Source: a virus
Lineage: Duplodnaviria > Caudoviricetes
Length of the DNA: 64,000 nt
Reading direction: 5' to 3' (one strand)
Virus record (IMG/VR): IMGVR_UViG_3300028603_000017
Span: 1-64,000 of that record
The notes beneath the pieces were generated by a model. That model did not search any database. It saw only the letters and a list, made by a program, of their open reading frames with translations, and was not told the origin of the DNA. The position numbers were made by a program, and so were the translations under genes. Positions 7,407 through 38,444 of the stretch are shown here, piece by piece (the stretch's first letter is position 1; each line of letters opens with the position of its first letter).

Positions 7407-8162
7407 TCATAAAATCTTAAATTTCTTTATTTGACTATCAGGGATTACTTCTGTTCTTAAACCAATGTACGCTATATCTCCAGTAAAGTATCGAATATTT
7501 GCCCATCTACCGAGATAGTTACCAGAATTACTTCCATAGATAGTTGTGTTCAAAGTAAAAGAAGTTTGACTTAATAAAGTATGTTCATCCTCACCTTGGG
7601 CTTGAACATATACTTTTTGCATAGGTGCAGTGCCGTCATGAGTTACTACGATGCTAAGCCATGAATTAATATACGATACAGGTATATTAATATCTGTTAC
7701 GTTGCGACTATAATCTATGCGTAATCTAGGGTTTGTTGTGTTATTAGCAAAACCTAAACCAAAAGCATAATATGCGCCAGATGAGCCTGTGTCCCCTCCT
7801 CCCATATAACAAATAGTAGAGCTAGATACAAAAGAACTCTCAATAGGCCTTACAATAGCTATTAGTGTTCTACTGTTATTATTTAATACAATACCTGTTG
7901 ACGGAACAGTTAGATTATTGCCAGTTCCTCTTCTTATGCTAAATCCACCTTGCTTATTAGGATCATTTTCAGAGAAATCATAACCGCTCCCACCACCAAT
8001 CAGATGTCTATCTAAGCCAGATGAATCATTGTAATTTTGATCAAATTCATAAGAGAATACAGCAGCTCCAGTAGATATTTTTAGAAATTCTTCTGACCAC
8101 TTCAATTGCTTTAGTTCACCGCCCCCGCCAGCTCTTCTTAATATTTTAGATAGTTGACTCAT
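7407..8162 (-). CDS. LamG/concanavalin A-like domain protein (KxLRR N-terminal family)
   Basis: MSQLSKILRRAGGG start. YEFDQNYNDSSG, WLSIVVTHDG and YFTGDI LamG features. Confidence 0.75.
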   Translation of the reverse strand: MSQLSKILRRAGGGGELKQLKWSEEFLKISTGAAVFSYEFDQNYNDSSGLDRHLIGGGSGYDFSENDPNKQGGFSIRRGTGNNLTVPSTGIVLNNNSRTLIAIVRPIESSFVSSSTICYMGGGDTGSSGAYYAFGLGFANNTTNPRLRIDYSRNVTDINIPVSYINSWLSIVVTHDGTAPMQKVYVQAQGEDEHTLLSQTSFTLNTTIYGSNSGNYLGRWANIRYFTGDIAYIGLRTEVIPDSQIKKFKIL

Positions 8163-8233
8163 ATGGAATACATCTATAGTAGATTACAATCATAAAATTC
8201 TATGTTTAAATACACTATATAAAAGGATGCAGA

Positions 8234-8647
8234 GTGGAAACAATCAATATAGGTACTGGACCTGATAGTGGTGATGGTGAAACTACCAGATCAGCTATGC
8301 AAAAGATCAATGCTAATTTTACAGAATTAGATGAAACAAAAGCTGATAAAGCTGAAACTATTTTTACTATTACAGGTACTGATCCTGAAATAGTTGCTGA
8401 TAATGGTGATATTCAAATATGGGAATTAACTGCTAACCAGTCACCTACAATTAATCTAGGTAGCGGTAGATCTATTACGCTGCATGTTACAAAAGGAGCT
8501 TTTGTTATTACATGGCCTGAGATCGTTTGGGTAGGTGGTGAAGAGCCTGAGCTATCTGATGAAGACGTAAGTATCTTAACGTTATGGGAAGTCAACGGAC
8601 ACACCTTTGGCGTGATGGTGGGATCTGTTACTTTACCTACTCCATGA
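8234..8647 (+). CDS. Small tail adaptor protein
   Basis: INIGTGPDSGDGETTRSAMQKINANFTEL N-terminus (shared with ORF 3094). ITWP.IVWVGG.EP.LS C-terminal module. AAGGA upstream of GTG. Confidence 0.65.
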   Translation: METINIGTGPDSGDGETTRSAMQKINANFTELDETKADKAETIFTITGTDPEIVADNGDIQIWELTANQSPTINLGSGRSITLHVTKGAFVITWPEIVWVGGEEPELSDEDVSILTLWEVNGHTFGVMVGSVTLPTP

Positions 8648-8656
8648 GTATAAATA

Positions 8657-9331
8657 ATGGGGCATCTAGCCAAATTACTCAGACGAGGGGGGCTGGGAGA
8701 GGGTACTAGTCCTGGTGATCCATTTTATAATGACACTGTAATCATTTTAAATGCTAATGAAACAAATGGTGCTACTAGCTTTATAAATGAAGCACCGATC
8801 GTAATGGAACCTAGTATAAATAGAAATCTCTATGTTCAGAATAATCGCATCATACATTCAGTAGGTAATAATGGTAGATTATTATATAATAGCTCGCCCC
8901 ATTTTGCTTTAAATCAAGATTTAACAATTGAGTGCTATATTACTTTTCAAAGTTCTTATAGTGGATTTCTTTTATCACATTCGGGAATACTATACTTTAC
9001 TGTCTCTTCAATAAACATTGAGCAGTTTTATATAAGTAGTAATTACTGGAATATTTATTCCACGATCTTAAATGTTGGTACTAGATACCATTTAGCTATT
9101 GTTAGAACCATAATTGACAATAAAAATAGAATGTTTATAGATGGCGTTCAGGTGAGAGAAGGTACGTCTGTTTTAAATTATGTTAATATTCCATATGGAA
9201 TATTTGGTGTAGGTGGTAGAGACGATTTAAATGCTCCATATATGCAAATAGAGGCATTTAGATATACTAAAGCAGCTAGATATATTGAAGACTTTACTCC
9301 TCCTACTTTACCTTTCCCAAATCACTCTTAA
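8657..9331 (+). CDS. LamG/concanavalin A-like domain protein (KxLRR family)
   Basis: MGHLAKLLRRGG, DPFYNDT, DLTIECY, YHLAIVR, FRYTKAARY..DFTPP..PFP. Confidence 0.85.
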   Translation: MGHLAKLLRRGGLGEGTSPGDPFYNDTVIILNANETNGATSFINEAPIVMEPSINRNLYVQNNRIIHSVGNNGRLLYNSSPHFALNQDLTIECYITFQSSYSGFLLSHSGILYFTVSSINIEQFYISSNYWNIYSTILNVGTRYHLAIVRTIIDNKNRMFIDGVQVREGTSVLNYVNIPYGIFGVGGRDDLNAPYMQIEAFRYTKAARYIEDFTPPTLPFPNHS

Positions 9332-9333
9332 TG

Positions 9334-9381
9334 ACATAAATGCTCATATCGATCTGAAATCGATATGAGCATTTATTATGT
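9334..9381. terminator. Intergenic palindrome H5
   Basis: ac-ataaatgctcatatcgat-ctgaa-atcgatatgagcatttat-tatgtcg. Confidence 0.75.
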
Positions 9382-9408
9382 CGCTATTAATTTCAGGATA
9401 CAAACATT

Positions 9409-12400
9409 ATGGCTTATTTTATCTCCACCCCTGGTGATGGTAGATACGGTATACTGAAAATACTCAACATCATAACAGAAAAACAATTTACGTTAGATGA
9501 TGTTGAGTTTTCACTTCCACAAAGACATGACTCTGATGTAGAGTCTAGAAACACGCAAGTAGTTGTTCACTTTAAAGGTGAAAAAGGTTATTATGGTAAT
9601 AAAACAGTTTATTACAACAGAACACACATTTCTGCATTACCGCCTTTAACGATTAACCGTAATGGTGCTACTACTTATTATGGTGTTATCAATACGCTTA
9701 ATGAAGAGTATAATTTATTCTTAACTGAAAACGATATCATTGAAGGTCCTCTTCCAGATATCGTTAGTTCCGTTATTACAGTAACACTACCTATATCTGA
9801 GAATTCATACACTTATTATAGTGGCGATGAGATTGAGGTAGATCCTTTTATTCCAGAGTATTCTATCAGCAATGTAACTGATACCTTAATGACCTACGTA
9901 TGTGTTGGTCATGATAAGTGGGCACAGTACTCGGATAATTCTGGTAGTACCTATCAAATTCTCGTAGAAACAAATAGTTACGATTGTGGTTATGATGATA
10001 CCAATCCTAGAATAAAACTCACCAATCCTGCCTCTATGTCAACACTGGAGGAGGAAACGTCTGACCCATTTACAATTGAATACTTAAATCCAGATCAGCC
10101 TATTACTGTTACAGTATCTGGTCCAGGCTTAACAATCAGTCAAACCACGTTTGAGTTAGATACTGAAAATACAGAAGGTACTTTCACAGTATCGTCCAAT
10201 CACCCTGGTATTTATACGATATCGATTACTAACGTAGGTGGAGCTATTAATCCTCCGTCTGTTAACTATACTTTTATTGATCGATACAATACAACCTATA
10301 GTGTCACTCCTCCTGATTTATCAAGATTGATCGAAGGTGAATTATCAGATGACTTTACAATCACTGGATATCAAATAGATCCAGATGAACCTGTTACAGT
10401 TACTATACATCCTTCTAGTGGCCTAGTATCAACAGTTAATACAGTTTTATTAACCAATACAAATCCAACAGGTATATTTAAGGTATCTGCTGTTAGTGCA
10501 GGCAGCTATACGTTAAGCTTTACTAATAATAGATTTCTAATCAATCCGCAACCTATCTCTGTTGATGTTCTGTATCCAGGTCATATTACCATCACACCAC
10601 CAGCTGAGCCGGTAGTTGATGGTGTTGAATCTGGTTTGTTTACAGCGACACTAGTCAATGGTTTAGAATCAGTTACAGTTACACCTAGCTTTACAGGTAA
10701 TGTAGTTGTATTTCCTGAAAGTTTTATTCTTTCACCACAAAACCCTACAGGTAATTTTAGAGTTACTTATACAGGTACTGGTGCAAATACATTATCTGTT
10801 ACTAATGATGGTGTTGCTTATAATCCTGACGATTATAATTTTACAGTTATTACTAAACCTACTTTTAATATAACTGTACCTACTAGTGAGATTTTATCTG
10901 GTCAAACATCTGATCCGTTTACCATTACGTTAGTTAATGGATATAAGCCCGTAACTATTGGTATTACGACTGATTTTGACCACATCTCTACGAATTCAGT
11001 TATTTTAACACCAGGTAATCCTACAGCTACCTTTACTGTGTTGGCTAATGTAGGTGGTATATATCATCTGAATTTTACCAATAATGCTCAGCTAGATAAT
11101 CCTAGTGAGATTACAATCAATGTTGATCAGGTTTATAACACAGAGTATTCTGTAACGCCTCCAGCTCAGCTAAATCTAACGATTGGACAGACCTCTGGTA
11201 ATTTCACAGTAACTGCCACTCAAGTAGATCCGTCTTTACCTTTGACAGTAACAGCTAGTTCAGATGAGGACTTAGAGTTTTCCCAAGATACTTTTGTATT
11301 GACAGCAGGATCTCCTAGTGCAACTTTCACAGTCAGCTCTGATGTAGAAGATACCTACACAATCAATTTTGATAACGATTTAGGTTTGGATAATCCTAAT
11401 GATATTAATGTCAATATCATTGATCCTGGATTTTTACACCTTACTCCACCTGAGTCTGATATATTTATCAATAACTATTCAGATCCATTTACTGTATCGT
11501 TAGAGGGTGGACACAACACAATCATTGTGTCTATGGCTTCAGCAGGAGCTACCTTTTCTCCATCTACATTAACTTTATCTCCAGATAATCCTACTGGAAC
11601 TTTTAGAGTTAGATACACTACAGCTGGCAATAAAACCATTGTTGTTTCTAATAACGGTATTGCAGTTAATCCACCAAGCTATCCATTAACAGCATACGCT
11701 GTACCTACTATTACAGTTACAGCACCTGCTACACCAGTTTATGTAGATCAGCAATCAAGTAATTACACGATTACTTTAAATAATGGGTATAAACCTGTAA
11801 CGGTTAATATAACTACTGGTATTGAAACGATTAGTGGCACCAGTTTTGAGCTAACACCGGCTGCACCTACCGCTACATTTACAGTACAAAGCTCTATAGA
11901 AGGGTCTTGGAGTCTTAACTTCACTAATACTGAAGGTTATACAATGACCAACAGTTTGAATGTGAATGTGACGGAATATGTTGGTCCTATATTGTTATTA
12001 ACAAAACCATCTGGTGACTTTTATGTTAATGAAACCAGCGGTAACTTTACAATCACATTACTCAATCCTGAAGCTAACGTTACTGTTACTGTTGTTACAG
12101 ATGCAGATACCGTTAGCAGTTATACGCACATTTTAGGAGTAGGTAATACAAGCAGAACTTTCACAGTTAAATACGATAATGTTGGATTTGGCACTGTTGG
12201 TATTACCAACAACATGGGTTATGCCAATCCACCTGCTCACAATATCGAAATCATTGAAAGAGAACCTGTTGTCTTTACACTCGTTAAAACAACACCAGAT
12301 CCAGCTTTAAGAAATGTAGGACAAGTATTTACAATATCTGCTACCAATATTGGTAACACCATTAACGTAGTGGGTGTTGTTGATCCTACAGATGGTGTTA

Positions 12401-15400
12401 GTGTATCTCCAAGCAGTAGAAATTTAACACAAGGCTCTCCCAGCTCTACATTTACTGTAACAGCTAGTAATCCTGGCGATTATACATTTGGTATAACAAA
12501 CAACCAAGACGCTACAAATCCTACACCAGTAGAGTATACAGTTATTAATGGTGAGATACTATTAAGAGTACCTACTACCAATATTGCTTCAGGTATTGAG
12601 ACAGATTGGTTTGAAGTAGAGCTAACCAATTACAATACCAATACAGTTGTAGATATTGGTTTAACTGACTTTACAGATGGATCTGTTAGTATAGATCCAA
12701 CCGATGTCTATCAAACCAGTAGGATTTTATTAACATCTAGTAATAGAATCGGTAGATTTAAATTAACAAAAGCATCTGCTGGTAACATTACTTTATCGAT
12801 TACCAATAATCAAAGTCTGATTAATCCAGAATCTGTAGAATTGACTTTCTACGTAGGACCTGAATTAAGCGTCACTGCTCCTAGCGTAACAGAAGTCTTT
12901 GTTAATCAAATTGTGGGAAACTATGTGGTGACTCTATCTAATCCTGATAGTGAAGTCACATTTACATCCTACTACGATCCATTGGCTCAAGACACCAATA
13001 AAGCCAATGTTACGCTTTATATGGATTTCCAAGGTCAAGAAGAATCTACTGACTTTAAAGACTATAGTAATAAAAAATATACCATAAACAAAGTCTTTGC
13101 TGATCCTGATAATCCTGGAGTAGTTTTATCAGACACTGATCCTATCAATGGATATACCAGTGCTCAGTATTCAACTACAAATCACTATTTAACAGTTACT
13201 GAAACTACTAATGATTTTAGGTTTCCTGGTAACTTTACAATAGAAATTGATTTTAGAACTTCTTCAACTTCTAAAGTCTTATTAGATAAATATGCGTCTT
13301 CAGGTGCTAGTTGGTACTTGTGGATAAATGCTGACGGTTATTTACAGTGGTTTAGCAATGTTACTGGAGAGCTAGTTTCTCCAGACGCTGTCAATGACGA
13401 TGAAGTAAAACAAGTAGCTATTACTAGAGTAGGTGCTACTTTGTATATGTTCATCAATGGTCAAATGACAGCATCTAAGGCTGTATCGACATCAGAGATT
13501 GCAGGTGCTGGTACTACATTAGGTATCGGGGCTAGACACACTAATAGAAATTCAGCTTATGATTTTGTAGGCTCAATTGGTAGACTCGTTATTACTAAAG
13601 GTGTAGGTAGATATAATGCTAATTATGCTGTACCTGAGCTTAAAATACTGAAGATAGAGCCTCAAGCTCTGGTATTAGATGCTGGTGAGCCTACTCAAGT
13701 ATTTACTGCACAGTCTCCTAGTGCAGGACAATATTCGATTAAGTTCAGTAATGACAGAGGTATTGCAAATCCTACCGATCAATTATTGGCTTTCAGACCT
13801 ATACCTACCATAGAGCTTATACCGGCTCCGTATGTAACGGTAGACGGCTACTATATCGATGAAGAAACTAAAGACTTTACAATCAATCTCTTAAATGCCT
13901 CTGAGATGGATATTGAAATCAGTATCGTCAAAGACAGTGCTTTAGAGTTATTAGAAACACCTTTTGGTTGGGATGGTACTAAAACCATCATGAACCAAGA
14001 TAATGATAGCGTTAATTTTACAATAATTGCTAACGCATTAGGTAGTTATAGTTTACAGATACTTAATAACAAAGGTTTACCTAATCCTACTGTCTTTTAT
14101 TTAAAAATTAATGAAAGAACAGAATTAGCTCTAGGTTTAGAAGCTCCTGATAACACAAATATAGAGGTCAATAAAAACAGTGATAATTTTACTGTTAGAT
14201 TATTAGGTCCTCATATTCAAGACGTAACTGTCACTCCAGTGTCTGATCCTGCTGGTGTTGTATTTGAGCCTAGCTATTTTATTCTTAATCAAAGCAATAA
14301 AGTAGCTACATTTACAATCAGCTCAAATACGACTGGTGTATTTGATATCGGTATAGAAAACGATGCTGAGATCACAGATCCTGCTGCTGTAGAGTTTAGC
14401 TTCAGAGCAGCTTCACTATTACAGATTACTAGTGAACCTAGTGAATTACGTCAAAATGAGGAATCTGGGTTATTTGTATTAACACTGACCAATCCTTATC
14501 AACCTATTACAGTGCAGCTAGTTTCTCCAGACGCTGTCTTTAGTACAAATAACTTCATACTCTCCCCTGAATCCCCTACAGCCACCTTTACGGTAACCTA
14601 TAGTGGATTTGGTTTAAGACAAATACAGTTTATAACAGATATTGAAGTTACAGATAACACAGGCCACCAAGTTACTGTATTACCAACCGATGCACCCGCT
14701 TATATCACTTTAGATATTCCTGAGGGAGATTTATTTGCTGGTGTTAATTCTGGTGATTTTATTTTAACGCTACATAATGGTCCGTGGCATTATGATGAAG
14801 ATGATAACATCTTACAATATACAGTAGATACTGAATTGGTCACAACTGATTGGTCACTACCAGTCGATAGTTCTTTTGTACCAAAACAAGTAAACGTTGC
14901 AATTACTAGTGATACTGAAGTATTTAGTAAAACTGAGTTTGTATTAAATGCTGTCAATAACGTAGATACATTCAAATTAAACGGTGTTGAAGCAGGACAT
15001 TTTACGATTGAAGTAAGTAACGATAGCGATATCACAAACCCAGCAACTACAAATATTGTTGTGGATGCGGAACTATTTATTGGATTAACAGCTCCTGATG
15101 AAACTGTGTATAAATCAAGGAGATCTCACCCATTTGTAGTAAGTGTACCTGATTTAGATAGAGAAGTTGTTATTACACCTATATCTAGTAGTGAGGACAC
15201 GATATTCTATCCTGAATCTTTTACATTAACGCCCAGTAATCCTACTGGTGAATTTACAATAAAACACGCAACTGTAGAAACTATTTCTATTGGTTTAACT
15301 AACAACATCGGGTTGATTGATCCGATTGATGTTGACGTAGTGTTGGAAGATATGGATGAATGGGCTGAATATATTGAATATTTAGTAGCACCCACATCAA

Positions 15401-18400
15401 CTACTATAGACAATAAAGCTTATAGCGGATTGACATTAAATCCAGTTGGCGCGACCAGCGCTGTTAAAACCAGTTATGCACCATTTCCTGAGACTGGAAA
15501 TGAAGGTTATATTCTTAGTATACCTACAAACCAAGTCAATGTACTAAGACTACATAGTGATGACCTAAGTCCTCTTAGAATAAACTCTACAAAAGAGTTT
15601 ACTTTAGAGTTTAATATAAACACCAAAGAAAATAACTCATCAAATATAGTTACTTTGGTTGATTTTGGTGGAGAATACTATAGTGATGCTAATTTAGGGT
15701 ATGCTCCATGGATTTACATCGATAAATCTAACAACAGCATAGCTTTATATGACACTGTGCAAAAGACTGTAGTTTATTCTACACCAAGCAATAGCGTACC
15801 AGTATCACCATCAGACTATGAATTCCAATATATCGTTATTCAATATAAGAACGAGGTTATTAGTTTTTATGTGAATACTCAATTGGTTGGTACATTTAAC
15901 TATTTAATGCCTGATATTAATCATGGAACTAGTGTAGCTAGTACGAAAGTAATTAGCTTATTATCAACAAATAGAATTACTAGCGATAGTTTCTGGCAGT
16001 ATGCTGATGCTATTCGCTATACTGCCAAAGCCAGATATCAAGATTTGACACCACCGTTGCTATCTAGGTTATCTGCTACTAACATTACAGCTCTTAGACT
16101 GTATGAGCCAGCAGTGCCTTATATAGACAAAAATGAGATTAGTCATAATTTCACAGTGTCTCTAAGAGGAGAACTTGTTGGTGATGTGGTTATAACACCT
16201 AGAGCAAATGTGAGTGGTGTTCTATTTACACCACAGAGCTTGAGTTTAAATACTGCCAACAGAACAGCAGTATTTACAATGGTGTCAAACACGGTTGGTG
16301 AAGTTATAGTAACTATTGATGATTCCAGATATTTATATTGTCAAGATGGTATAAAAATTCAAGTATTAGATGTTGATCCATATTACGATAATACTTGTTT
16401 AAATTTCAGACCTAACACTCACGCTAATGAGGTAAGTAACTCTGCTTTTATAGATGTCAGTAATGTAGGACATACTTTAAATAATAGTTATAGTGGTGCA
16501 GAACGAGCTATTGTAGCTAAAGAATATTTAAGCATAGGTGGGCGAGCTGCTTATAAATCAGAAAATACCAATAGTTCAACTTCACTTACTTTTAATAGAT
16601 TACAAGCTACATTTGCTGACTTAAGTAATGATTTTACTATTGAAGGCACTATAGCTATAAGTAAAGACGGCAATGAAACCGGTTATATTCTGAACTTATA
16701 TCGTGGTATATCTGGTGATTATAGCGGTATTATAATACAATACGTTAGATCAATAAATAAATTACTAATAGTTGGTAATAATCAATACTTAATTCCTATT
16801 GAAGAAACACCAGCTACAATACCGCCCGCTAATACATTGTTTGATTTTGCGGTAGAATATATATCGGGTGTATTAACTATTTACATAGATGGCGATATTT
16901 ATGCTTCTAAGTATGTAACCATCAATAATCCAGCTGTGGATACTACGGCTTTTATTATGGGTAGGTCAGGTAGCGGTACTTATGCTTTTAATGGATGGCT
17001 ATCTAGATTAAGAGTAACAGGAGGTATGTATCGTTATGGCGCACCATATACTCCAACAGCTTTACCATTTAGTGGATCCAAAGCTAAGTTACTATCAATG
17101 ACTTCACCTGAGTTAGAAATATACGATACACAACAAACAGATGTATTTACTATAACGGCTTCAGGATTAAATAGACAAGATTGTGTTATCAACCTTGATG
17201 TTGGTAATCCAGGTTTGGTATTTACACCATCTACTATTACGTTGACAAAAGCAACACCTAGCGCTACATTTAAAATATCTGGTGAGCCAGGTATTTACAA
17301 CGTAGTCATTAATAATAATTTATTAATAGATGGTATTGATCCTTTTACATTGACAATTTACGATAGTAGTGAATCTATTATTTCTGTAGATGAACCTACT
17401 GATACTCAATACTTTACCAATGAAGAGTCTGATACTTATTCGCTAAGTGTTAGTAATCCAGTATTACCTATACAAACAGCGTTTGTTATAGATCCATTAC
17501 ACTTCGATCCTTATAAGGACGATGTGGTGGTTTACTTTGATTTTAATCTACCTAGTTATAAAGACATTAACAATATCGTAGAATGGACAGGTAATCCAAA
17601 TTACACTATCATTCCTATCAATAACCCTACTATTGATAGAATTAATCCGATTGACGGCATTAGTGATGTTGTTTTTGATACTGATCAAGGTATATATTTA
17701 GTAGATAGTGCTGAAGAATCTGCCTTTAGCTTACCAGGTGATTTCACTATTGAGGTAGATTTCATAGCAACTAACGATAATCAGCAAAGAAATATCTTTA
17801 GAATAGGTTCTAGCTATAATTCAACAGATAGTTCTAGAATTCGTGCTTATTTTCAGCATACCAGCAACTCTATTAATATAGAAATATACAGTAACCTAGG
17901 CACTTATGTAACACATACGTACAGTGGTCCTGAGCTTGCCCTAAATGTCGTAACTAGATTAGCGATTGCTAGAAAATTAAATACAAACACTATTTATCTA
18001 TTTATAAATGGTGTATTAGTATTTATGAATAATGCATCGCCACTCAATAGCACTATTATTAGTCCTAGTAATAAGGATATAATGATTGGCTCAGACATGA
18101 GTATTCCAGAGTATCCACAAAATAGTTTTAAAGGTAATATTAGTACTTTTAAGATTACTAAAGGTATTTGCAAATGGACTAGTAATTACGACATTAACGA
18201 ATATCGTGATATTTATCCTATATTTACACCTAATAACATTTATTTAGATGATGAGGATAATGAGATTGAATTTACTATTGCTTCATCTTATCCTAAGCAA
18301 TATAAAGTCATTGTTGATAACAATAAGAATTTAAATAAGCCTGAATTCTTAATAGGGTTTAATAAAATACCTGTTATTAATTTAATAAGACCAACAGTAA

Positions 18401-19092
18401 CTACTATAGTTAAAGATGATTATTCTGAACAATATATTTTATCTTTAACAGATCCAGGATTAAAGCCTGTGTTTGTAACTATTGAGTTACCTACTAATTT
18501 AACAATTCATTCAGCCAGCCTGAGTCCTACGTCTGGCACTACTTTTGAATTAGATATCAATACGCCTACCCTTACGTTTACTCTAACCAGTACAATAATA
18601 GGCGATTATTCGTTTAACATTAGTAATACTGAAGGATTAAATAATCCAGCAATTACTAATCTAACTGTTAAAGTACCTGAAATTATAATTACTGGACCTA
18701 ATACCAGTAATGAGGTATATGTAGGTGAAGACTCTAGCGACATCACAGTTGGTCTAGATATTGCTAATTCACCGATTGATTTAACAGTAACAATACCGAC
18801 AGATGTGACTTTTACTGATTTAGATCCTGAGATTAAGTCTAGAATCTATACATTCAGTAAAGACATTTTAGAACATAAGTTCAAGATAAGAAGCTCTGTT
18901 GGTGACAGTACTCAGCAAATTACTGTCACCCATAGTGGTGATATCGACACACAAACCATCGATATCTATATTGTGGACAGACCACTCCTACCTAATAATA
19001 TCAAGTCTACAGATTTTGATATGTATTTGGTACAAAGAGAATCTCAAGAAACTGATAACGACATTAATTTGTTACAAGGTTTCTTTGATTAA
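9409..19092 (+). CDS. Giant 3227-aa virion adhesin: phiKZ gp131-like N-terminal attachment domain, about 20 Ig-like repeats, four LamG domains
   Basis: NTQV...YYG....YYNR N-terminal domain. ~94-aa repeats with L(S/T)PxNPTxTF. Four FTIE/FTLE...RY LamG units. Confidence 0.85.
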   Translation: MAYFISTPGDGRYGILKILNIITEKQFTLDDVEFSLPQRHDSDVESRNTQVVVHFKGEKGYYGNKTVYYNRTHISALPPLTINRNGATTYYGVINTLNEEYNLFLTENDIIEGPLPDIVSSVITVTLPISENSYTYYSGDEIEVDPFIPEYSISNVTDTLMTYVCVGHDKWAQYSDNSGSTYQILVETNSYDCGYDDTNPRIKLTNPASMSTLEEETSDPFTIEYLNPDQPITVTVSGPGLTISQTTFELDTENTEGTFTVSSNHPGIYTISITNVGGAINPPSVNYTFIDRYNTTYSVTPPDLSRLIEGELSDDFTITGYQIDPDEPVTVTIHPSSGLVSTVNTVLLTNTNPTGIFKVSAVSAGSYTLSFTNNRFLINPQPISVDVLYPGHITITPPAEPVVDGVESGLFTATLVNGLESVTVTPSFTGNVVVFPESFILSPQNPTGNFRVTYTGTGANTLSVTNDGVAYNPDDYNFTVITKPTFNITVPTSEILSGQTSDPFTITLVNGYKPVTIGITTDFDHISTNSVILTPGNPTATFTVLANVGGIYHLNFTNNAQLDNPSEITINVDQVYNTEYSVTPPAQLNLTIGQTSGNFTVTATQVDPSLPLTVTASSDEDLEFSQDTFVLTAGSPSATFTVSSDVEDTYTINFDNDLGLDNPNDINVNIIDPGFLHLTPPESDIFINNYSDPFTVSLEGGHNTIIVSMASAGATFSPSTLTLSPDNPTGTFRVRYTTAGNKTIVVSNNGIAVNPPSYPLTAYAVPTITVTAPATPVYVDQQSSNYTITLNNGYKPVTVNITTGIETISGTSFELTPAAPTATFTVQSSIEGSWSLNFTNTEGYTMTNSLNVNVTEYVGPILLLTKPSGDFYVNETSGNFTITLLNPEANVTVTVVTDADTVSSYTHILGVGNTSRTFTVKYDNVGFGTVGITNNMGYANPPAHNIEIIEREPVVFTLVKTTPDPALRNVGQVFTISATNIGNTINVVGVVDPTDGVSVSPSSRNLTQGSPSSTFTVTASNPGDYTFGITNNQDATNPTPVEYTVINGEILLRVPTTNIASGIETDWFEVELTNYNTNTVVDIGLTDFTDGSVSIDPTDVYQTSRILLTSSNRIGRFKLTKASAGNITLSITNNQSLINPESVELTFYVGPELSVTAPSVTEVFVNQIVGNYVVTLSNPDSEVTFTSYYDPLAQDTNKANVTLYMDFQGQEESTDFKDYSNKKYTINKVFADPDNPGVVLSDTDPINGYTSAQYSTTNHYLTVTETTNDFRFPGNFTIEIDFRTSSTSKVLLDKYASSGASWYLWINADGYLQWFSNVTGELVSPDAVNDDEVKQVAITRVGATLYMFINGQMTASKAVSTSEIAGAGTTLGIGARHTNRNSAYDFVGSIGRLVITKGVGRYNANYAVPELKILKIEPQALVLDAGEPTQVFTAQSPSAGQYSIKFSNDRGIANPTDQLLAFRPIPTIELIPAPYVTVDGYYIDEETKDFTINLLNASEMDIEISIVKDSALELLETPFGWDGTKTIMNQDNDSVNFTIIANALGSYSLQILNNKGLPNPTVFYLKINERTELALGLEAPDNTNIEVNKNSDNFTVRLLGPHIQDVTVTPVSDPAGVVFEPSYFILNQSNKVATFTISSNTTGVFDIGIENDAEITDPAAVEFSFRAASLLQITSEPSELRQNEESGLFVLTLTNPYQPITVQLVSPDAVFSTNNFILSPESPTATFTVTYSGFGLRQIQFITDIEVTDNTGHQVTVLPTDAPAYITLDIPEGDLFAGVNSGDFILTLHNGPWHYDEDDNILQYTVDTELVTTDWSLPVDSSFVPKQVNVAITSDTEVFSKTEFVLNAVNNVDTFKLNGVEAGHFTIEVSNDSDITNPATTNIVVDAELFIGLTAPDETVYKSRRSHPFVVSVPDLDREVVITPISSSEDTIFYPESFTLTPSNPTGEFTIKHATVETISIGLTNNIGLIDPIDVDVVLEDMDEWAEYIEYLVAPTSTTIDNKAYSGLTLNPVGATSAVKTSYAPFPETGNEGYILSIPTNQVNVLRLHSDDLSPLRINSTKEFTLEFNINTKENNSSNIVTLVDFGGEYYSDANLGYAPWIYIDKSNNSIALYDTVQKTVVYSTPSNSVPVSPSDYEFQYIVIQYKNEVISFYVNTQLVGTFNYLMPDINHGTSVASTKVISLLSTNRITSDSFWQYADAIRYTAKARYQDLTPPLLSRLSATNITALRLYEPAVPYIDKNEISHNFTVSLRGELVGDVVITPRANVSGVLFTPQSLSLNTANRTAVFTMVSNTVGEVIVTIDDSRYLYCQDGIKIQVLDVDPYYDNTCLNFRPNTHANEVSNSAFIDVSNVGHTLNNSYSGAERAIVAKEYLSIGGRAAYKSENTNSSTSLTFNRLQATFADLSNDFTIEGTIAISKDGNETGYILNLYRGISGDYSGIIIQYVRSINKLLIVGNNQYLIPIEETPATIPPANTLFDFAVEYISGVLTIYIDGDIYASKYVTINNPAVDTTAFIMGRSGSGTYAFNGWLSRLRVTGGMYRYGAPYTPTALPFSGSKAKLLSMTSPELEIYDTQQTDVFTITASGLNRQDCVINLDVGNPGLVFTPSTITLTKATPSATFKISGEPGIYNVVINNNLLIDGIDPFTLTIYDSSESIISVDEPTDTQYFTNEESDTYSLSVSNPVLPIQTAFVIDPLHFDPYKDDVVVYFDFNLPSYKDINNIVEWTGNPNYTIIPINNPTIDRINPIDGISDVVFDTDQGIYLVDSAEESAFSLPGDFTIEVDFIATNDNQQRNIFRIGSSYNSTDSSRIRAYFQHTSNSINIEIYSNLGTYVTHTYSGPELALNVVTRLAIARKLNTNTIYLFINGVLVFMNNASPLNSTIISPSNKDIMIGSDMSIPEYPQNSFKGNISTFKITKGICKWTSNYDINEYRDIYPIFTPNNIYLDDEDNEIEFTIASSYPKQYKVIVDNNKNLNKPEFLIGFNKIPVINLIRPTVTTIVKDDYSEQYILSLTDPGLKPVFVTIELPTNLTIHSASLSPTSGTTFELDINTPTLTFTLTSTIIGDYSFNISNTEGLNNPAITNLTVKVPEIIITGPNTSNEVYVGEDSSDITVGLDIANSPIDLTVTIPTDVTFTDLDPEIKSRIYTFSKDILEHKFKIRSSVGDSTQQITVTHSGDIDTQTIDIYIVDRPLLPNNIKSTDFDMYLVQRESQETDNDINLLQGFFD

Positions 19093-28629: not shown

Positions 28630-28672
28630 ATAGTACTGCCTAGTACCCCTACAGGGTACTAGGCAGTACTAT
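28630..28672. terminator. Palindrome H10 between convergent genes
   Basis: atagtactgcctagtaccc-ctaca-gggtactaggcagtactat, followed by a T-run. Confidence 0.85.
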
Positions 28673-28683: not shown

Positions 28684-29479
28684 TTATTTGGTAGGAAATG
28701 GTTTAAAATCAGGAATAAAGTCTTCTGTATATCTAATAGCTCTTGTTATTCTGATTTGATCTATGTGACCTTTATAAGAGCAGTTCCGATTCGATTGTCT
28801 GTTCATACCAATAATTAGGCTTTGTGCTGGATGATTGTCTATAGAGTTTGAATAAGTCGTACCTGCATTTGACTTACCATTGACAAACACCTTATAGTTA
28901 GTATTATCTCTCACAATAGCTAAATGCGACCATTGTCCTTCTGGTACTGTACTAGCGTTACTAGGGATACTAAGATAAATACCACTACTGGTTTGTGCCT
29001 GAATATAACCAGTTACAGCATGTACTCCATTTTGACTATTTTCTAATTCTAATTCAAATCTGTAGTTATTACTACCTCTAGTGCCGTAGAATAAAACTCC
29101 ACAATTCGTAGTAGTATAAAAATTAGCTCTAGGTTTTACATAACATTCATACGTCCACTGCGTGTGTAAAGATAATCGAATTTGTGGATTATAGCTAGGA
29201 TCAGACGATAAAAAAGAACCTTCATCTATTACTGGCTCATCACTGAAATAAATAGAACCTTTATTTGTTCCTATTAAAGATTGTTTTTTTTTTTGTATTG
29301 TAAATAGGATTTGTATATAAAGTAGGGGCTATGATTGTATTATAACTGCTTTTATCAATAAAGTTGGTAGAGCCTTCAGCCATACCCTCAGCTGTCAATA
29401 ATAAAACCACGTCGCTCCAAAGAGGGTCTCTGCGATAGTCTAGTGTAGATGCTCTACGTAGTTTGGTAGCTAAGCTCAT
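28684..29479 (-). pseudogene. LamG-domain gene (KxLRR family) frameshifted at an A11 tract
   Basis: ORF 29479-29261 (MSLATKLRR..DPLWSDVVLLL) joins ORF 28914-28684 as one stop-free 264-aa frame if the T11 at 29284-29294 is T10 (..WTYECYVKP..QWSHLAIVR..RITRAIRYTEDF.P..PFP). Confidence 0.85.
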
Positions 29480-29482
29480 ATT

Positions 29483-29533: not shown

Positions 29534-29614
29534 AATACACCTGTAAAACGATAAGACAAATAAATATGAATACTAGAATAATAAACATATACTCATATTT
29601 ATAAGGTTTGTTTC

Positions 29615-31408
29615 ATGCCAAATCCAAACGATCCTATCGACATTACAAAGCCTGCCACTGAATTACTGATAGAGCAGTTTAATGTCTTAAATGATACCAA
29701 TCTAAATCATAACGATTTTTTATTCTCACTGCCTGAGCCAGCATCAGTACCGTCTACAGATATCAATACAAAGGTCGTATTGACACCTAAAGTATCTAGC
29801 GGATACTATACAAATAGAGAATTTTACTATACCCGTATTGATGTTGCTCAATTATTCAATAATGACAAAGTAGAGATTACTTATACTGAAGATGATGAAA
29901 ATCTCTCAGACATTATTGATCAGATCAATACAAAGTACGGTATTTACCTACAGGCATCAGACTATATTGATGTACCACTACCAGATTACGCTGAATTAGC
30001 TACCAATCCTAATCCCAGTATTGCCGTCGCTATTAATCCGGAATCTTACATTTATGTAGGTACGGGTAATTTGGTATTGGGCGAAAGAGTCAGACCTATT
30101 GATAACTACAACTATACCAGAAACATATTGGTAGTTACTGATAGTGAAGATAGTGGTATATTTGGCAATGATGTAGTCCTACTGGATACTGAATATAAAA
30201 AAGCCAGTTACTTTAAGGTATTTAGAAATACCACTCAAGTAGACTATTTTAGAGTAGATAAAGTCATTCCGCTATCTAATAGACGTTTCTATTTAGGTGG
30301 TCAATTTGAATTTGAAGCATCATTAGATGACGATCCTTTACAGGAATATGAATGCTCTGGCGTTATTATTGATACTTACGGTATGATCACCAAAGCCAGT
30401 GAAGAGCCATTATTTGGTCAAACTGCTAATAAGCATTATGGTAGGAATAAGAATATCGACAAGATTTATCTGGCAGATGTAGAAAATCTCATTACGCCAG
30501 CTGCCAGTATAAAGCTATACAAATACGATATTGATGGTGTGCTAGATGATATCTTTGACCCACAGCTAAGCTATAACCCTGTTATGGTCAGAGTCGATAG
30601 TGGTGGTAAAATCTATACAGTATCGCCTCAGTTTACTGGACCTTTACCAAACGATCCCTTAACGACTGGTAAACAGGTAAGAATTGATCGCCTCAATGAT
30701 GATGGTAGTATTGATAATAGTTTCTCACCTGTCAATATTAGAGTTAACTCTGGCGCTGATGATGTAATGCCTTTGTTAGATCTCTTACCTATGGATGGGG
30801 GAGGCTTTTTTGCCTGCTTTAAACCTATCTATGGTACCAGCGTATTATCTAGTTATCCTATTGTTAATGACGTACCCTTTGTCAGTGGTAGCGATCCTGA
30901 TGATTGTGCTTTTAATCCTGTTTTCAGAATAAACCAATCTGGTGGACTGGTAGGAGCATTTAAAACAGTATTACCTAACAATAAGCCAGAGACAGTCATG
31001 ATAGACGATGTTGACTTGGTTGAGGATAAATTCTCACTAATGTATGCTGATAATAAGTTATCAGTATTAACTTATCGTAATAACCCTATTACTGGCTTTG
31101 CTCAGTTTGGTGTGATGAATATGAGCATTAGTGGTAATATTAACAATATTGCACCTGAGAGATATGTTAACGATATCAGGTGGGAAAATATTGTGGCTAT
31201 GAATAAGTTTGATAATGGTCAATTTATTCTCTCTGGATTAGGTAGGATAAAGCTCCAGACAGGTGGATGGGGTAATGCCCAATATCTGATGGCTAGCTAC
31301 AATCAATCTGCACAGCTCACTGGTATCGTTTATCAGCCTGTGGTGGTAGGTACACCAAATGCACAAATCTATGATGTTAATGTTGTTGAGTGGTTGGTAG
31401 AAGCATGA
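29615..31408 (+). CDS. Virion protein: gp131-like N-terminal domain plus beta-propeller (delta-60-like repeats)
   Basis: NTKVVLTP...YY....FYYTRID; RLNDDGSIDNSF and YDIDGVLDDIF repeats. Confidence 0.7.
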   Translation: MPNPNDPIDITKPATELLIEQFNVLNDTNLNHNDFLFSLPEPASVPSTDINTKVVLTPKVSSGYYTNREFYYTRIDVAQLFNNDKVEITYTEDDENLSDIIDQINTKYGIYLQASDYIDVPLPDYAELATNPNPSIAVAINPESYIYVGTGNLVLGERVRPIDNYNYTRNILVVTDSEDSGIFGNDVVLLDTEYKKASYFKVFRNTTQVDYFRVDKVIPLSNRRFYLGGQFEFEASLDDDPLQEYECSGVIIDTYGMITKASEEPLFGQTANKHYGRNKNIDKIYLADVENLITPAASIKLYKYDIDGVLDDIFDPQLSYNPVMVRVDSGGKIYTVSPQFTGPLPNDPLTTGKQVRIDRLNDDGSIDNSFSPVNIRVNSGADDVMPLLDLLPMDGGGFFACFKPIYGTSVLSSYPIVNDVPFVSGSDPDDCAFNPVFRINQSGGLVGAFKTVLPNNKPETVMIDDVDLVEDKFSLMYADNKLSVLTYRNNPITGFAQFGVMNMSISGNINNIAPERYVNDIRWENIVAMNKFDNGQFILSGLGRIKLQTGGWGNAQYLMASYNQSAQLTGIVYQPVVVGTPNAQIYDVNVVEWLVEA

Positions 31409-31890
31409 GTACTTTGAATCTGCCTTATGCTAAACCTTTTGTATTTAAAATGATCAATGCTGAGCTAGAAATAGCTGCTGATCCTGATAACTATACTTTA
31501 AGCGATCCTATTGTATCCTTAGGTTTTTTTAATACAGAGGTTATTATCAGACCTTTGATCGTATCCAAGATATATGGTCGGCACTCATTTAAATACAATA
31601 GAGTTAAGCTAGAGGATTTAAATTCTCCTATTGAGATAGTAGTAGAAAATGAAACTAGGTTAGTTGATTTAATTCCTAAGATCAATGCTCTAGAATTATT
31701 TGATACCAGTATTCCTAGTCCACTTGATTTTCTAGATGAATTAGGTGTGCCTTATATTGGCTCAACAGAGATACTAGATAAACCATTGCCACCATTTGGT
31801 AGTGCTAGTCAAACATTTACGACATTGGTAGCTAGGCAAAATTCCTATATACTCAGTGGTGTAGCAGAAATTAAACTCATTAAAGGATAA
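31405..31890 (+). CDS. Virion protein, stand-alone gp131-like domain
   Basis: NTEVII.P.....YG...FKYNRV.L; ATGA overlap. Confidence 0.7.
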   Translation: MSTLNLPYAKPFVFKMINAELEIAADPDNYTLSDPIVSLGFFNTEVIIRPLIVSKIYGRHSFKYNRVKLEDLNSPIEIVVENETRLVDLIPKINALELFDTSIPSPLDFLDELGVPYIGSTEILDKPLPPFGSASQTFTTLVARQNSYILSGVAEIKLIKG

Positions 31891-31892
31891 TA

Positions 31893-32321
31893 ATGCCTAA
31901 TCCTGATTTAGACCCTAAAGTTAAACTCATTAGCGTATATAATGCCTATAGAGCAGCAAACAATAAAGATCCTTTAGAAGTAACTGATTATAACTTTGGT
32001 GTACCTGAAGAATATTCTGGTCCTAAGAGTACTAAGAATACAAAGATAATCTTAACTCCTACACCGACTTCACCTGCATATGGTACAATTATTTTGTACT
32101 ATAATCGAATTGATTTGGCTAACCTAACAGGTTTTTCAGTAGAAAAAGGCTCTGCTACTACTGTGTTAGGTTTACTAGATAAGATCAATGAAGAGTTAGG
32201 TGTAGAGCTAACACCTATGGATGTGGAAGAAGCAGCCTTAGGTGCAGGTAGCTCTTTTACCCTAACTGTAACTGACCAATGTATGATCTTTTATGGATCT
32301 ACGACTATTGGTTTAACTTAA
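31893..32321 (+). CDS. Virion protein, stand-alone gp131-like domain
   Basis: FGVP...NTKIILTP....AYG...LYYNRIDL..INEELGVEL..D. Confidence 0.75.
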   Translation: MPNPDLDPKVKLISVYNAYRAANNKDPLEVTDYNFGVPEEYSGPKSTKNTKIILTPTPTSPAYGTIILYYNRIDLANLTGFSVEKGSATTVLGLLDKINEELGVELTPMDVEEAALGAGSSFTLTVTDQCMIFYGSTTIGLT

Positions 32322-32332
32322 ACCATTATACA

Positions 32333-32361
32333 CTCCAGAGTCCTACTATAGGACTCTGGAG
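32333..32361. terminator. Intergenic palindrome H11
   Basis: ctccagagtccta-cta-taggactctggag, then ctatgtcg. Confidence 0.75.
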
Positions 32362-32421
32362 CTATGTCGTCATTTTTTTATTAATCATTCAAATACTTTA
32401 GACGACTAAAAGAATATACCA

Positions 32422-33360: not shown

Positions 33361-33361
33361 T

Positions 33362-33496
33362 ATGAGAAAAAGAAAGAAACAATTAATGAGACGAATTAGA
33401 TTTCAATATCTAGAAGCTAAAGAATACGAACAACAAATGCTTCGAGCACTTGAACAAGGTTTTATTTCAGGAAGAGCTAAACAATGTCAGAATTAA
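33362..33496 (+). CDS. Small basic hypothetical protein
   Basis: 44 aa filling the gap between operon genes. Confidence 0.45.
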   Translation: MRKRKKQLMRRIRFQYLEAKEYEQQMLRALEQGFISGRAKQCQN

Positions 33497-35585: not shown

Positions 35586-35587
35586 TT

Positions 35588-35980
35588 ATGGGAATCAATT
35601 CAGCTATTATTGCAGTAGATTTTGATGGTACTGTGGTCGATCACCGTTTTGAGAGTAAAACAGACTTAGTACCACATGCTCCTCACGCAGTAAGAACACT
35701 CAAAGACCTTACCAATAGTGGAGCTAGACTGATACTTTGGACTATGCGTTCTGGCTCTAAGCTAGATGAAGCAGTTCAGTGGTATGAGGACAACAATATC
35801 CCTTTATGGGGAGTCCAAAAGAACCCTGAACAAGAAACATGGTCACAATCTCCTAAAGCATATGCACAAATCTATATTGATGATGCTGCATTAGGAGCAC
35901 CACTGATTAAACCTGAAGGCTTTGCCAGACCATGTATTGACTGGCTGGCTGTCAGGAAATACTTCCAAATGAAAGACTAA
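35588..35980 (+). CDS. HAD-superfamily phosphatase
   Basis: IAVDFDGTVV, LILWTMR, SPKAYAQIYIDD. Confidence 0.88.
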   Translation: MGINSAIIAVDFDGTVVDHRFESKTDLVPHAPHAVRTLKDLTNSGARLILWTMRSGSKLDEAVQWYEDNNIPLWGVQKNPEQETWSQSPKAYAQIYIDDAALGAPLIKPEGFARPCIDWLAVRKYFQMKD

Positions 35981-35990
35981 ATAAACATAG

Positions 35991-36022
35991 ATACAGGACT
36001 GGTTTCATTACCAGTCCTGTAT
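35991..36022. terminator. Intergenic palindrome H12
   Basis: acatag-atacaggactggt-ttcatt-accagtcctgtat-tatg. Confidence 0.75.
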
Positions 36023-36086
36023 TATGCAGTTATATATTTTTTTACTATGGTCTCCAATATTTTGAATTATTTATATTTTGTTTTGA

Positions 36087-36416
36087 ATGACAGAAGAATT
36101 AATACCTAATCAGCTACAAGCTAATGTTCTCATTAATGATTTAAAGAATGTCGTAAAGACTCGCTTACTGGGTATTAATGAATGCATTAGACAACTTAGA
36201 AAGAATGAAAGAGCTATTACAGATTACAAAGATAAACTTAATCTGTATAAACTGGCTAGAGCTCAAACCAATACTGTTTTAAATAAGTTAGTTAATCTCC
36301 TGAATAAAGGAGAATTTACTCTAACAGAATTTAAACAATTAAAACAAGAATTTATAGAAATGACTATTCCAGATATAGAAAAACAAAGGACTGATGATGA
36401 GTTTGAGCACAGTTAA
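36087..36416 (+). CDS. Hypothetical coiled-coil protein
   Basis: 109-aa ORF in operon. Confidence 0.65.
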   Translation: MTEELIPNQLQANVLINDLKNVVKTRLLGINECIRQLRKNERAITDYKDKLNLYKLARAQTNTVLNKLVNLLNKGEFTLTEFKQLKQEFIEMTIPDIEKQRTDDEFEHS

Positions 36417-36969
36417 ACGCAGAAGTGTATTTCTATCTATCTTTTTAGAATTGAAAAATGATGAAAGACTAGATAAAGATATCTATACTCATCTAGAGAT
36501 TAATGATAATGGTAATCCTACCATTACAGTAGAAGATTCTAAAAATAAGAATACATGCTATATTCAGTATAGTCCTGGTACTGATAGCTTTAAAATAGAG
36601 CATTGGGCAGGACTGCCTAATACTGCCTTTAATTTAGGATTAGCTCCTGAACTAGTATTAACTACCTATATTCAAAATGAATCTGGGTATATCAACCGCA
36701 TTAAATCCACTATTGTTAAAGCACTTGACTATGAATCAGCTTATAAGCAATGGATTTTAAATGGTAATAATCCTAAGATAGTGGCTAATACCTATAGTGT
36801 AGATGGTATTAAGGATTTACCTGAAAACCAAGTATTGGTCAAAGAAATACAACTAGAGCAATCAAAACCTGGCGTAAAGTCTTATACAGTCGTTAATAAA
36901 CGCAACCAGACTTTTACATTTTCATATGCTGATTTCCACAGCAAGTTTCAACTCAATTTATCGCAATAA
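36394..36969 (+). CDS. Hypothetical protein
   Basis: 191-aa ORF, AAGGA upstream. Confidence 0.7.
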   Translation: MMSLSTVKRRSVFLSIFLELKNDERLDKDIYTHLEINDNGNPTITVEDSKNKNTCYIQYSPGTDSFKIEHWAGLPNTAFNLGLAPELVLTTYIQNESGYINRIKSTIVKALDYESAYKQWILNGNNPKIVANTYSVDGIKDLPENQVLVKEIQLEQSKPGVKSYTVVNKRNQTFTFSYADFHSKFQLNLSQ

Positions 36970-36982
36970 AGGAAAGACAATC

Positions 36983-37465
36983 ATGGCAACCAAGAAATCT
37001 CCTACTAAAGCAGTAAAGACTACTGCTAAAAAACCTGCTACTAAAAAAACTACAGTTAAACCTGAAGTCAAAACTAAAGAACAAACCAAACCTGTTGCAA
37101 AGACAGCTGTAAAACCTGTAGCTAAAAAGACAGTTAAGCCAGCAGCTAAGAAAGATGTTGTAAAACCAACTGTTGTCAAAGAAGCCAAACCTGGCAAAGC
37201 TATGACTCCTGGTAATATAAAGGTAGCTGTTAAAAAGCCTGAGCCTAAAAAGGTAGAAGCAAAGCCTGTAATCGCCTCTACTCCTGCTGTCGTAGCTCAG
37301 CCTACCCAGACTATTGGTAAAGTATCTTTATCGTCTATAACCAAGTCTGTACCGGCTCCTACTCATGTAGCTAAGCCTGGTGCTGGTAAGATCTCTTTTG
37401 CTGATCTGATGTCTAAGATGACCAGCAATATGAGCTCAGCTGTTGTTAGTGGTCAAGCTAGATGA
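36983..37465 (+). CDS. Histone H1-like Lys/Ala/Pro/Thr-rich protein
   Basis: MATKKSPTKAVKTTAKKPATKK..., repeated VKP/AKK units; AAGGA RBS. Confidence 0.7.
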   Translation: MATKKSPTKAVKTTAKKPATKKTTVKPEVKTKEQTKPVAKTAVKPVAKKTVKPAAKKDVVKPTVVKEAKPGKAMTPGNIKVAVKKPEPKKVEAKPVIASTPAVVAQPTQTIGKVSLSSITKSVPAPTHVAKPGAGKISFADLMSKMTSNMSSAVVSGQAR

Positions 37466-37695
37466 ATAATAGTTTTAATGATTTAGATGATGGTTTTTAT
37501 ATAGTCAACGGTATATTCGATCAAATGTGCTTAGTTAAACTATATAGAAATCCAGACACAAATCAAAGAGGTATTGGATTTGGCATCTGGGATGGATCTG
37601 GATTTATACCTCTAACAGATCTATCGCCAGAGACCAAATTAGATAGAGTAGATATTTCTATTATGGGAACTTCAATATCGCACTCTGTTCTTTAA
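37462..37695 (+). CDS. Hypothetical protein
   Basis: ATGA overlap; GIGFGIWDGSGFIPL.DL. Confidence 0.65.
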   Translation: MNNSFNDLDDGFYIVNGIFDQMCLVKLYRNPDTNQRGIGFGIWDGSGFIPLTDLSPETKLDRVDISIMGTSISHSVL

Positions 37696-37704
37696 CAGCA
37701 TATA

Positions 37705-37731
37705 CTCCAGGTAGGACTAACCTACCTGGAG
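37705..37731. terminator. Palindrome H13 between convergent genes
   Basis: cata-ta-ctccaggtagg-actaa-cctacctggag-c-tatg; stem identical to H6. Confidence 0.8.
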
Positions 37732-37739
37732 CTATGTTG

Positions 37740-38444
37740 TCAAGATAATGGAAATGGTTTATTAGGCACAATAAAATTAGATATATATCTAGCTATTCCT
37801 CTGGTAATTCTAAATTGCTGCATATAGCCAGAATACGGATAATAATTACCGCTATCATACATAGTTCTACCTATCTGTAAGGGCATAGCGGGGTTTGCTG
37901 AATAGTTAGTTGGCATGCCAGCCACCATAACGCCGTTTACAAATAGCCTTAAATAATCATTATGATTAGTAGCAGCAATATGTTGCCATTGGTCTGCCAC
38001 TATCACACTATCGCTATTTAAACCAGAAATGCCAATAAATGAAAAACCAATTCTACCGTTAAGGCCAGCATTTATTGCGAATAACCAACCATTAACTCCA
38101 CCATTACGATTAGTAGCTATAGTCATTCTGTCTACTATATTGCTAGGTTTTATAAAACATTCTACTGTAAAGTCAGTATATGCTAATCCATAATCGCTTT
38201 CATAAACACTAACTAATGAGTTAGCGTAATGATTAAACAATATTGAATTAGAACCAAATTTAGGATCTACACTACTTGAAGTAGTATTATTGAAACTAAA
38301 TATTTTACCTTTAGCGTCATTAAAATTATTATTTGTTGGAATAAAATCTGTTCCTGGAATTAAACAAATCACTTGATCCCAATAGGGATCATGATCAAGA
38401 CTCAGTGCCTCCCTCCCTCGTCTCAATAATTTAGATATTCCCAT
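37740..38444 (-). CDS. LamG/concanavalin A-like domain protein (KxLRR family)
   Basis: MGISKLLRRG, DPYWDQV, DFTVECFIKP, QWQHIA, FRITRGIARY..NF.VP..PFP. Confidence 0.85.
   Translation of the reverse strand: MGISKLLRRGREALSLDHDPYWDQVICLIPGTDFIPTNNNFNDAKGKIFSFNNTTSSSVDPKFGSNSILFNHYANSLVSVYESDYGLAYTDFTVECFIKPSNIVDRMTIATNRNGGVNGWLFAINAGLNGRIGFSFIGISGLNSDSVIVADQWQHIAATNHNDYLRLFVNGVMVAGMPTNYSANPAMPLQIGRTMYDSGNYYPYSGYMQQFRITRGIARYISNFIVPNKPFPLS

Follow-up and report, generated by a model that had tools for sequence, protein, structure and literature searches.

Why do genes that are scattered over a phage genome, and that code for strongly divergent LamG domains, begin with the same short peptide? 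The question is raised by the first 64 kb (referred to as the window) of the IMG/VR record IMGVR_UViG_3300028603_000017, a phage contig of 261,198 bp with a G+C content of 36.5%. The original prediction, made from the sequence of the window, was that the peptide docks four LamG proteins ("tips") onto the product of a small adaptor-like gene, 8234 (genes are named by their lower coordinate). From comparisons with other phage genomes, we consider it probable that the N-terminal peptide (the leader) is a plug by which interchangeable LamG tips are docked into a socket at the C-terminal end of the 8234 product. The DNA polymerase of this genome shares 44-48% sequence identity with those of Burkholderia phage FLC9 and Ralstonia phages RP12 and RP31, and phiKZ-group Pseudomonas phages also match. 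This points to an uncultured phiKZ-like (nucleus-forming) jumbo phage.

The four LamG genes of the window, and the N-terminal peptides reported for them, were borne out when the open reading frames (ORFs) and their N-termini were checked. All four are real, but a fifth copy outside the window and a frameshift in one of the four had been missed. Tip 1 (7407-8162, minus strand) codes for a protein of 251 residues with a predicted LamG fold; its leader occupies codons 1-10 (nt 8133-8162) and is followed by a G4 linker. It is divergent from 8234. Tip 2 (8657-9331, plus strand, 224 residues) is located 9 nt behind 8234 and has a Gly-rich linker after its leader. Tip 3 (28684-29479, minus strand) is divergent from gene 29615, which codes for a DUF7941 protein, and consists here of two frames (N-terminal frame at 29261-29479, C-terminal frame at 28684-29328). 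Tip 4 (37740-38444, minus strand, 234 residues) follows the DNA polymerase gene, with which it shares the strand. The fifth copy, tip 5, is found at genome positions 222503-223168 (plus strand).

The whole genome was scanned for the pattern [KR][ILVM]{1,2}RR at most 10 residues from the start codon. Six ORFs were returned, five being the LamG genes and one being unrelated. The leader consensus of the four LamG genes in the window is M-x-(x)-L-[SA]-x-K-[IL]-(L)-R-R. The proteins are built from a leader of 9-10 residues with a terminal R-R, a linker of 3-12 Gly, Ser or polar residues and, behind it, the jelly roll. All free-standing single-domain LamG genes of the genome (the five tips) carry the leader, while the multidomain LamG proteins (a giant of 3,227 residues and the 830-residue product of gene 20393) do not. 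The codons for the shared leader residues differ among the copies, so that it is the peptide that is conserved, not the DNA; conservation at the level of RNA or DNA was rejected for this reason. The eight-residue core of the leader is 38-62% identical among the copies, compared to about 19-40% for the bodies, a range for which gap counting matters. Leader look-alikes at 36394, 74674, 115611 and 199855 were also rejected. They have low scores and no linker-plus-domain architecture, and are attributed to chance.

The strong divergence of the lectin domains, as originally described, was confirmed. However, only two of the sequences are assigned to LamG by Pfam above the gathering cut-off of Laminin_G_3 (PF13385; 27.6 bits). 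These are the product of tip 4 (60 bits) and the C-terminal part of tip 3 (28.5 bits), while tip 2 scores below the cut-off (20.9 bits). A Pfam search gives no LamG match for tip 1. Its predicted structure (ESM Atlas) has template modelling (TM) scores of 0.69-0.75 to Laminin_G_3 clusters, and it is by predicted structure only that tip 1 is classified as a LamG jelly roll. An AlphaFold2 model of the tip 4 product has a pLDDT (predicted local distance difference test) of 82, and its domain has Foldseek matches to ConA/LamG-type jelly rolls. In this model, residues 1-16 have values below 50 and are not packed on the domain, so that disorder and no contact with the domain are predicted for the leader. 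The LamG subfamily is very large: a search among protein representatives gave 62,977 LamG matches, dominated by giant multi-LamG proteins. Two of these giants (P0066 and P0083) have the N-terminus M-F-[KR]-Y-L-R-R-S, and in several single LamG proteins the start is M-L-R-R with poly-Gly behind it. In this subfamily, a basic L-R-R start may be of wider occurrence. No published function for single LamG proteins of jumbo phages was found in the literature.

The candidate docking partner, the product of gene 8234 (plus strand), has 137 residues and is composed of two parts. The first ~40 residues (8234-8353) contain a common phage-fibre motif that resembles the N-terminal domain of T4 gp9/gp10 (PF07880, E-value 7e-5; 23.4 bits, which is under the cut-off of 25 bits). 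PHROG matches are to fibre, gp9 and gp10 families. The motif covers 30 residues and is common to dozens of fibre genes; its presumed role is baseplate attachment. The second part, the C-terminal ~95 residues (8354-8647), is referred to as the socket. Residues ~41-137 match the C-terminal ends of longer proteins from four phage records. The match to the hidden Markov model (HMM) of the socket family has an E-value of 2e-33, and the domain ends at the stop codon. When this HMM was applied to the phage's own genome, only 8234 matched (the next best E-value is 0.33), and this is thus the sole genome copy. The socket has no match in the Pfam copy searched (which is without PF26209), in the PHROGs or among PDB sequences. 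A metagenome scan with 8234 returned only relatives of the N-terminal motif and none of the near-identical strains described below.

The evidence that connects socket and leader comes from other phages. In each of the four records matched initially, the socket is the last part of the protein and is followed immediately by a gene with a leader-like N-terminus and a non-LamG body. A search with the alignment of the socket domain recovered 80 IMG/VR loci, which together with the four initial records adds up to 84 loci. In these, the socket ends 0-5 residues from the stop codon of proteins with 136-1,264 residues, and the parts upstream of it are tail fibres where annotated or matched. An overlap of 1 or 4 nt between the stop codon of the socket gene and the gene behind it is found in 58 of the 68 distinct loci. 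In most cases, this partner gene has the N-terminus M-(x)-L-[AS]-x-K-L-R-x-A-A or one that is closely similar (core L-A-x-K-L-R-x-A-A). The leader was detected in the partner gene of 48-55 of the 68 loci, compared to 3-16 of 1,333 control ORFs from the same loci; the lower figures of both ranges (48 and 3) are from leave-one-out scoring with a threshold of at least 8 bits. The partner bodies belong to 23 unrelated families, 20 of which have members with the leader; among them are LamG, Lcl_C, DUF285, DUF7483, beta-propeller and ALK_LTK_GRD. Judged by sequence, it is only the leader that is constant in the partner proteins.

The same arrangement is repeated in six prokaryote contigs (Sphingomonas, Acidovorax, Ottowia, Burkholderiales, Porticoccaceae, and one binned as Bifidobacterium) and in the cultured roseophage CRP-1, where gp42 is the socket protein and gp41 the leader-bearing partner. 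Most members of the leader family are from loci outside the phiKZ group (cyanophages, the roseophage and prophage-like contigs from Proteobacteria), and they are always located behind a socket. One of the fibre genes is poorly represented in its record: in MW202701 (ctYwJ313), a frame of 718 codons at 2087-4243 (plus strand) ends in the socket. Instead of a single gene, the annotation has small hypothetical ORFs and an opposite-strand "ribonuclease E" there.

The leaders of the genome under study are members of this family. A scoring matrix was trained on the foreign leaders, without those from the window, and was applied to 3,239 candidate N-termini of the genome. Tip 3 ranked first (20.2 bits), tip 2 second (12.6 bits), tip 5 fourth and tip 1 fifth (10.3 bits). 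In the reverse test, a matrix built from the five leaders of this genome separated the foreign partners from the control ORFs (Mann-Whitney p = 1.5e-22). The gene pair 8234/8657 has both features of the module, a C-terminal socket and a downstream leader gene 9 nt after the stop codon, so that tip 2 is in the canonical partner position. Together with the fibre-end position of the socket and the adjacent leader genes elsewhere, these blind ranks support the core of the original prediction, namely that the peptide docks tips onto 8234.

What distinguishes this genome is the copy number, as five plugs face a single socket. In the flanks (±3.5 kb) of 83 foreign loci, a second plug gene was never encountered. 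Since each socket is matched by a single plug there, the usual state is one fibre with one adjacent partner, and it is this phage lineage that multiplied and scattered the partner gene.

Variation among strains and relatives is consistent with a leader that is kept while the bodies change. Strain alleles of tip 2 (8657) have exactly the same leader and an altered linker. P0041, from a relative, shares the first 12 and the last 7 residues with tip 2, while the body is only ~25-30% identical. Three proteins with ~60% identity to tip 4 (37740) are mosaics. Two of these mosaics are exactly alike in residues 1-70 and diverge beyond; two match nearly exactly in residues 76-210, while their first 70 residues are different and their leaders are of different subtypes. 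From these patterns it follows that N-terminal modules and bodies recombine. Relatives with a 74%-identical socket protein also encode leader-bearing LamG proteins, and more distant LamG homologs (~30% identity) are without this leader. In the strain allele of tip 5 (P0215), all seven differences are confined to residues 163-171, a stretch that is either a loop of high variability or a small patch of recombination.

The frame of tip 3 is broken by a run of 11 adenines (29284-29294, on the minus strand). The gene is intact (263-264 residues) in four near-identical strains (alleles P0217-P0220). One of these alleles has a run of 10 adenines (read as three Lys codons) and the other three have a shorter, interrupted run, so that only the run of 11 breaks the gene. 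The break is a change of homopolymer length, which may be due to an assembly error, a recent mutation or slippage. The run could be a slippage-prone on/off site or could be an assembly error.

It had also been noted that three of the LamG cassettes end next to a palindrome. As anything special, such as a cassette border, these palindromes were not supported. Perfect hairpins directly follow three of the tip genes (9336-9376, 28631-28670 and 37705-37731), with a TATG within a few bases, but such hairpins occur genome-wide and are ordinary terminators. Hairpin and TATG look like combined terminator and late-promoter units. TATG is the core of the late-promoter consensus of phiKZ (PMC4666361). 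It is found 29-52 nt upstream of 8234, tip 1 (7407), tip 3 (start at 29479) and tip 4 (start at 38444), and at a similar distance upstream of tip 5 (222503). In the divergent intergenic region of 71 bp between tip 1 and 8234 (8163-8233), it occurs on the plus strand (8201-8204) and on the minus strand (8191-8194), ~30 nt before each start codon. For tip 4, the gene is located behind a hairpin and a TATG (38489-38492). The chance of encountering a TATG is 0.19 per 50-nt window, so that the motif is frequent and is only supporting evidence for late, structural-type expression. No enrichment of the phiKZ early-promoter motif was found.

Taken together, these observations suggest the following arrangement. 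The product of 8234 would be a short fibre or adaptor that is fixed to the baseplate by its gp9/gp10-like N-terminal motif, while its C-terminal ~95 residues would form the socket that binds the leader. The leader, a basic amphipathic peptide of ten residues, would be the plug. [quoted passage not shown] Socket and plug may be a widespread, portable fibre interface, normally encoded by a fibre gene and a partner that is translationally coupled to it. The lineage of this jumbo phage would have duplicated and scattered its LamG gene with the plug. Since there is one socket for several dispersed plug genes, five tips, all encoded behind late-type TATG motifs, could compete for it.

Several points weigh against docking of all five tips into the 8234 socket. 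The adjacency of socket and leader genes across phages indicates functional coupling, which is not necessarily direct contact. Among pairs of loci with unrelated bodies, similarity of the leaders tracks similarity of the sockets (rho 0.27; reached by none of 500 permutations), which speaks for docking, but this covariation is modest and is confounded by linkage, to which it is partly due. Only one of the five tips, tip 2, is encoded next to the socket gene. The leader of tip 4 is one residue shorter and reaches only 2.6 bits with the foreign matrix, and the body of tip 1 has no detectable homology to those of the other tips (hhalign, not significant). The AlphaFold2 model of 8234, computed from an alignment of three sequences, has a pLDDT of 43 and is too poor for a fold search. 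Finally, two of the tips adjoin DUF7941 genes, whose products would be an alternative docking platform.

The most probable of the alternatives, although we regard it as unlikely, is that only tip 2 uses the socket, while the four dispersed copies keep the leader by descent or for another use and are not fibre tips but, e.g., soluble lectins on the host envelope. The usual arrangement of one socket and one adjacent plug in the foreign loci fits this explanation. The dispersed copies are located among non-structural genes (e.g. beside the DNA polymerase gene), and one of them, tip 3, is frameshifted here. However, the gene of tip 3 is intact in the four strains. The core of the leader has been kept in five copies and in the orthologs from relatives while the linkers vary and the bodies have diverged (to ~20-35% identity), one of them beyond sequence recognition. 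In addition, all four independent transcription units have the late-type TATG at 29-52 nt upstream.

Less probable still is that the leader is a virion-docking tag with another partner, the tips being docked to DUF7941 proteins rather than to 8234. Tip 2 is directly upstream of a giant DUF7941 gene, which itself codes for four LamG domains, and another DUF7941 gene, 29615, is transcribed divergently from tip 3. For the DUF7941 proteins of phage Goslar, oligomerisation by peptide-to-domain beta-augmentation has been predicted, and they have carbohydrate-binding domains (PMC13742148). On the other hand, DUF7941 has been reported only in chimalliviruses (PMC13742148), while the leader family is mostly found in other kinds of phages and invariably follows a socket. 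Moreover, the linkers of the six DUF7941 proteins from this genome do not resemble the leader.

It is very improbable that the leader is a propeptide that is cleaved off, a signal for secretion or, as in phiKZ, one for targeting to the capsid. In favour of this are its N-terminal position and basic character, the cleavage of many head proteins at S/A/G-x-E in phiKZ-like phages, and the presence of such a triplet soon after the leader in tips 1 and 4. However, tips 2, 3 and 5 have no such triplet; in tip 2, the nearest Glu (L-G-E) is off-motif and is lost in strain alleles. Inspection shows that Gly, Ser or charged residues and no hydrophobic core follow the leader in all five, unlike in a Sec or Tat signal, and many phages outside the phiKZ group have the leader family. 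Docking of the leader into the 8234 socket is thus the explanation that we prefer.

The docking logic is known from other phages. Phages with multiple receptor-binding proteins have been described, including K1-5, K1E and SP6 (adaptor gp37, with N-terminal peptides of 7 and 11 residues on its partners), G7C (gp66/gp63.1), CBA120 (TSP1-4) and groups of Klebsiella phages (Latka et al. 2019, PMC6872550). As in the genome studied here, a very short conserved N-terminal peptide is found there on receptor-binding proteins that are otherwise unrelated. A single anchoring or adaptor protein is used, and bodies are swapped by recombination while the peptide stays (PMC6872550). There are, however, differences. 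The adaptors of K1-5, G7C and CBA120 have domains similar to domains 2 and 3 of T4 gp10, and none were detected in 8234, for which the PF07880 match mentioned above is sub-threshold and no PDB sequence was matched. Here, the docking candidate is a separate, unannotated C-terminal domain. The partners in K1-5, G7C and CBA120 are trimeric tailspikes encoded beside the adaptor, while here there are five single LamG partners, four of which are spread over 215 kb in the genome of a nucleus-forming jumbo phage.

A fibre gene followed by a small adhesin gene is also typical for gp37/gp38 of T2, T6 and S16 (Trojet et al. 2011, PMC3157838). The N-terminal part of gp38 attaches to the C-terminal tip of the fibre and the remainder sets specificity, which is likewise a modular design with a hypervariable specificity part (PMC3157838). 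In gp38, however, attachment involves a whole N-terminal domain instead of a leader of ten residues, and there is one adhesin per phage. The gp37/gp38 families are not among the PHROG or Pfam matches of 8234 or the tips, so that no sequence relationship was seen. The system closest by virus family is the DUF7941 "fibre cloud" of Goslar and phiKZ, which is peripheral, baseplate-associated, and equipped with carbohydrate-binding domains and peptide-to-domain assembly (PMC13742148). The present genome also has six DUF7941 genes, two of which adjoin LamG tips, but the tips are without a DUF7941 domain and their leader family is tied to the 8234 socket.

Another C-terminal domain of fibres, the putative Phage_phiTE_241_C (PF26209), was pointed to by a look-alike cluster from the ESM Atlas (proteins of ~139 residues, 35% of the members). 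This family may be related to the socket, but an hhalign comparison between the socket alignment and the C-terminus of phiTE_241 gave a probability of 6%, and the gene after phiTE_241 has no leader of the socket-partner kind. Thus, while the docking logic is known, the docking domain, the type of partner, the number and dispersal of partners and the host virus family are different.

The phiKZ-like Ralstonia phage RSF1 did not come up in the search with 8234, which matched four records, and its pair of divergent LamG genes (4055-4783, minus strand, and 4842-5504, plus strand) have other N-termini, with a common but different basic start (M-Q-x-x-M-L-L-[KN]-K-K). This fits a co-occurrence of socket and leader. 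The start in RSF1 may represent a similar tag, for which the partner would be a different one. ORF089 of RSF1 is annotated ~80 codons too short if an upstream ATG is used.

The surroundings of the adaptor gene are a fibre and baseplate region that extends over positions 1-23 kb of the window. It comprises fibre-like genes, a DUF4376 gene (6590-7234, directly after the fibre gene at 5264-6541) and the giant DUF7941 gene (9409-19092, plus strand). Besides the four internal LamG domains assigned by Pfam, which are without a leader, the 3,227-residue product of the latter has many immunoglobulin-like repeats. Three additional DUF7941 genes (29615, 31390 and 31893) are located at 29615-32321 (plus strand), and the six copies in the genome include one at genome positions 196215-197025. 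The gene at 538-1167 codes for a 209-residue protein with a weakly Mtd_N-like N-terminus (PF18454, below the cut-off).

It is tempting to speculate further that plug and ~95-residue socket are a standard interface of many unrelated phages, which loads any plug-bearing adhesin wherever it is encoded. The five dispersed LamG tips would then compete, so that the virions released in one burst would be of mixed or alternative specificities, and one of the tips would be switched by poly-A slippage. This extended proposal is tentative, and we consider it rather doubtful as a whole. If it is true, the host range would be diversified without an invertase, a diversity-generating retroelement or tandem cassettes. 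One socket and five plugs would raise the question of how the phage decides which tips are loaded. The cultured phage CRP-1, with its gp42/gp41 pair, offers a system in which the interface can be tested. For fibre-end proteins of uncultured phages, a simple rule would emerge, in which the unannotated socket is located at a C-terminus and the start of the following gene is inspected for the leader. Candidate receptor-binding proteins could be found by their plug even when encoded far from the tail genes, which would be useful for the annotation of jumbo phages, whose host-recognition apparatus is largely unmodelled.

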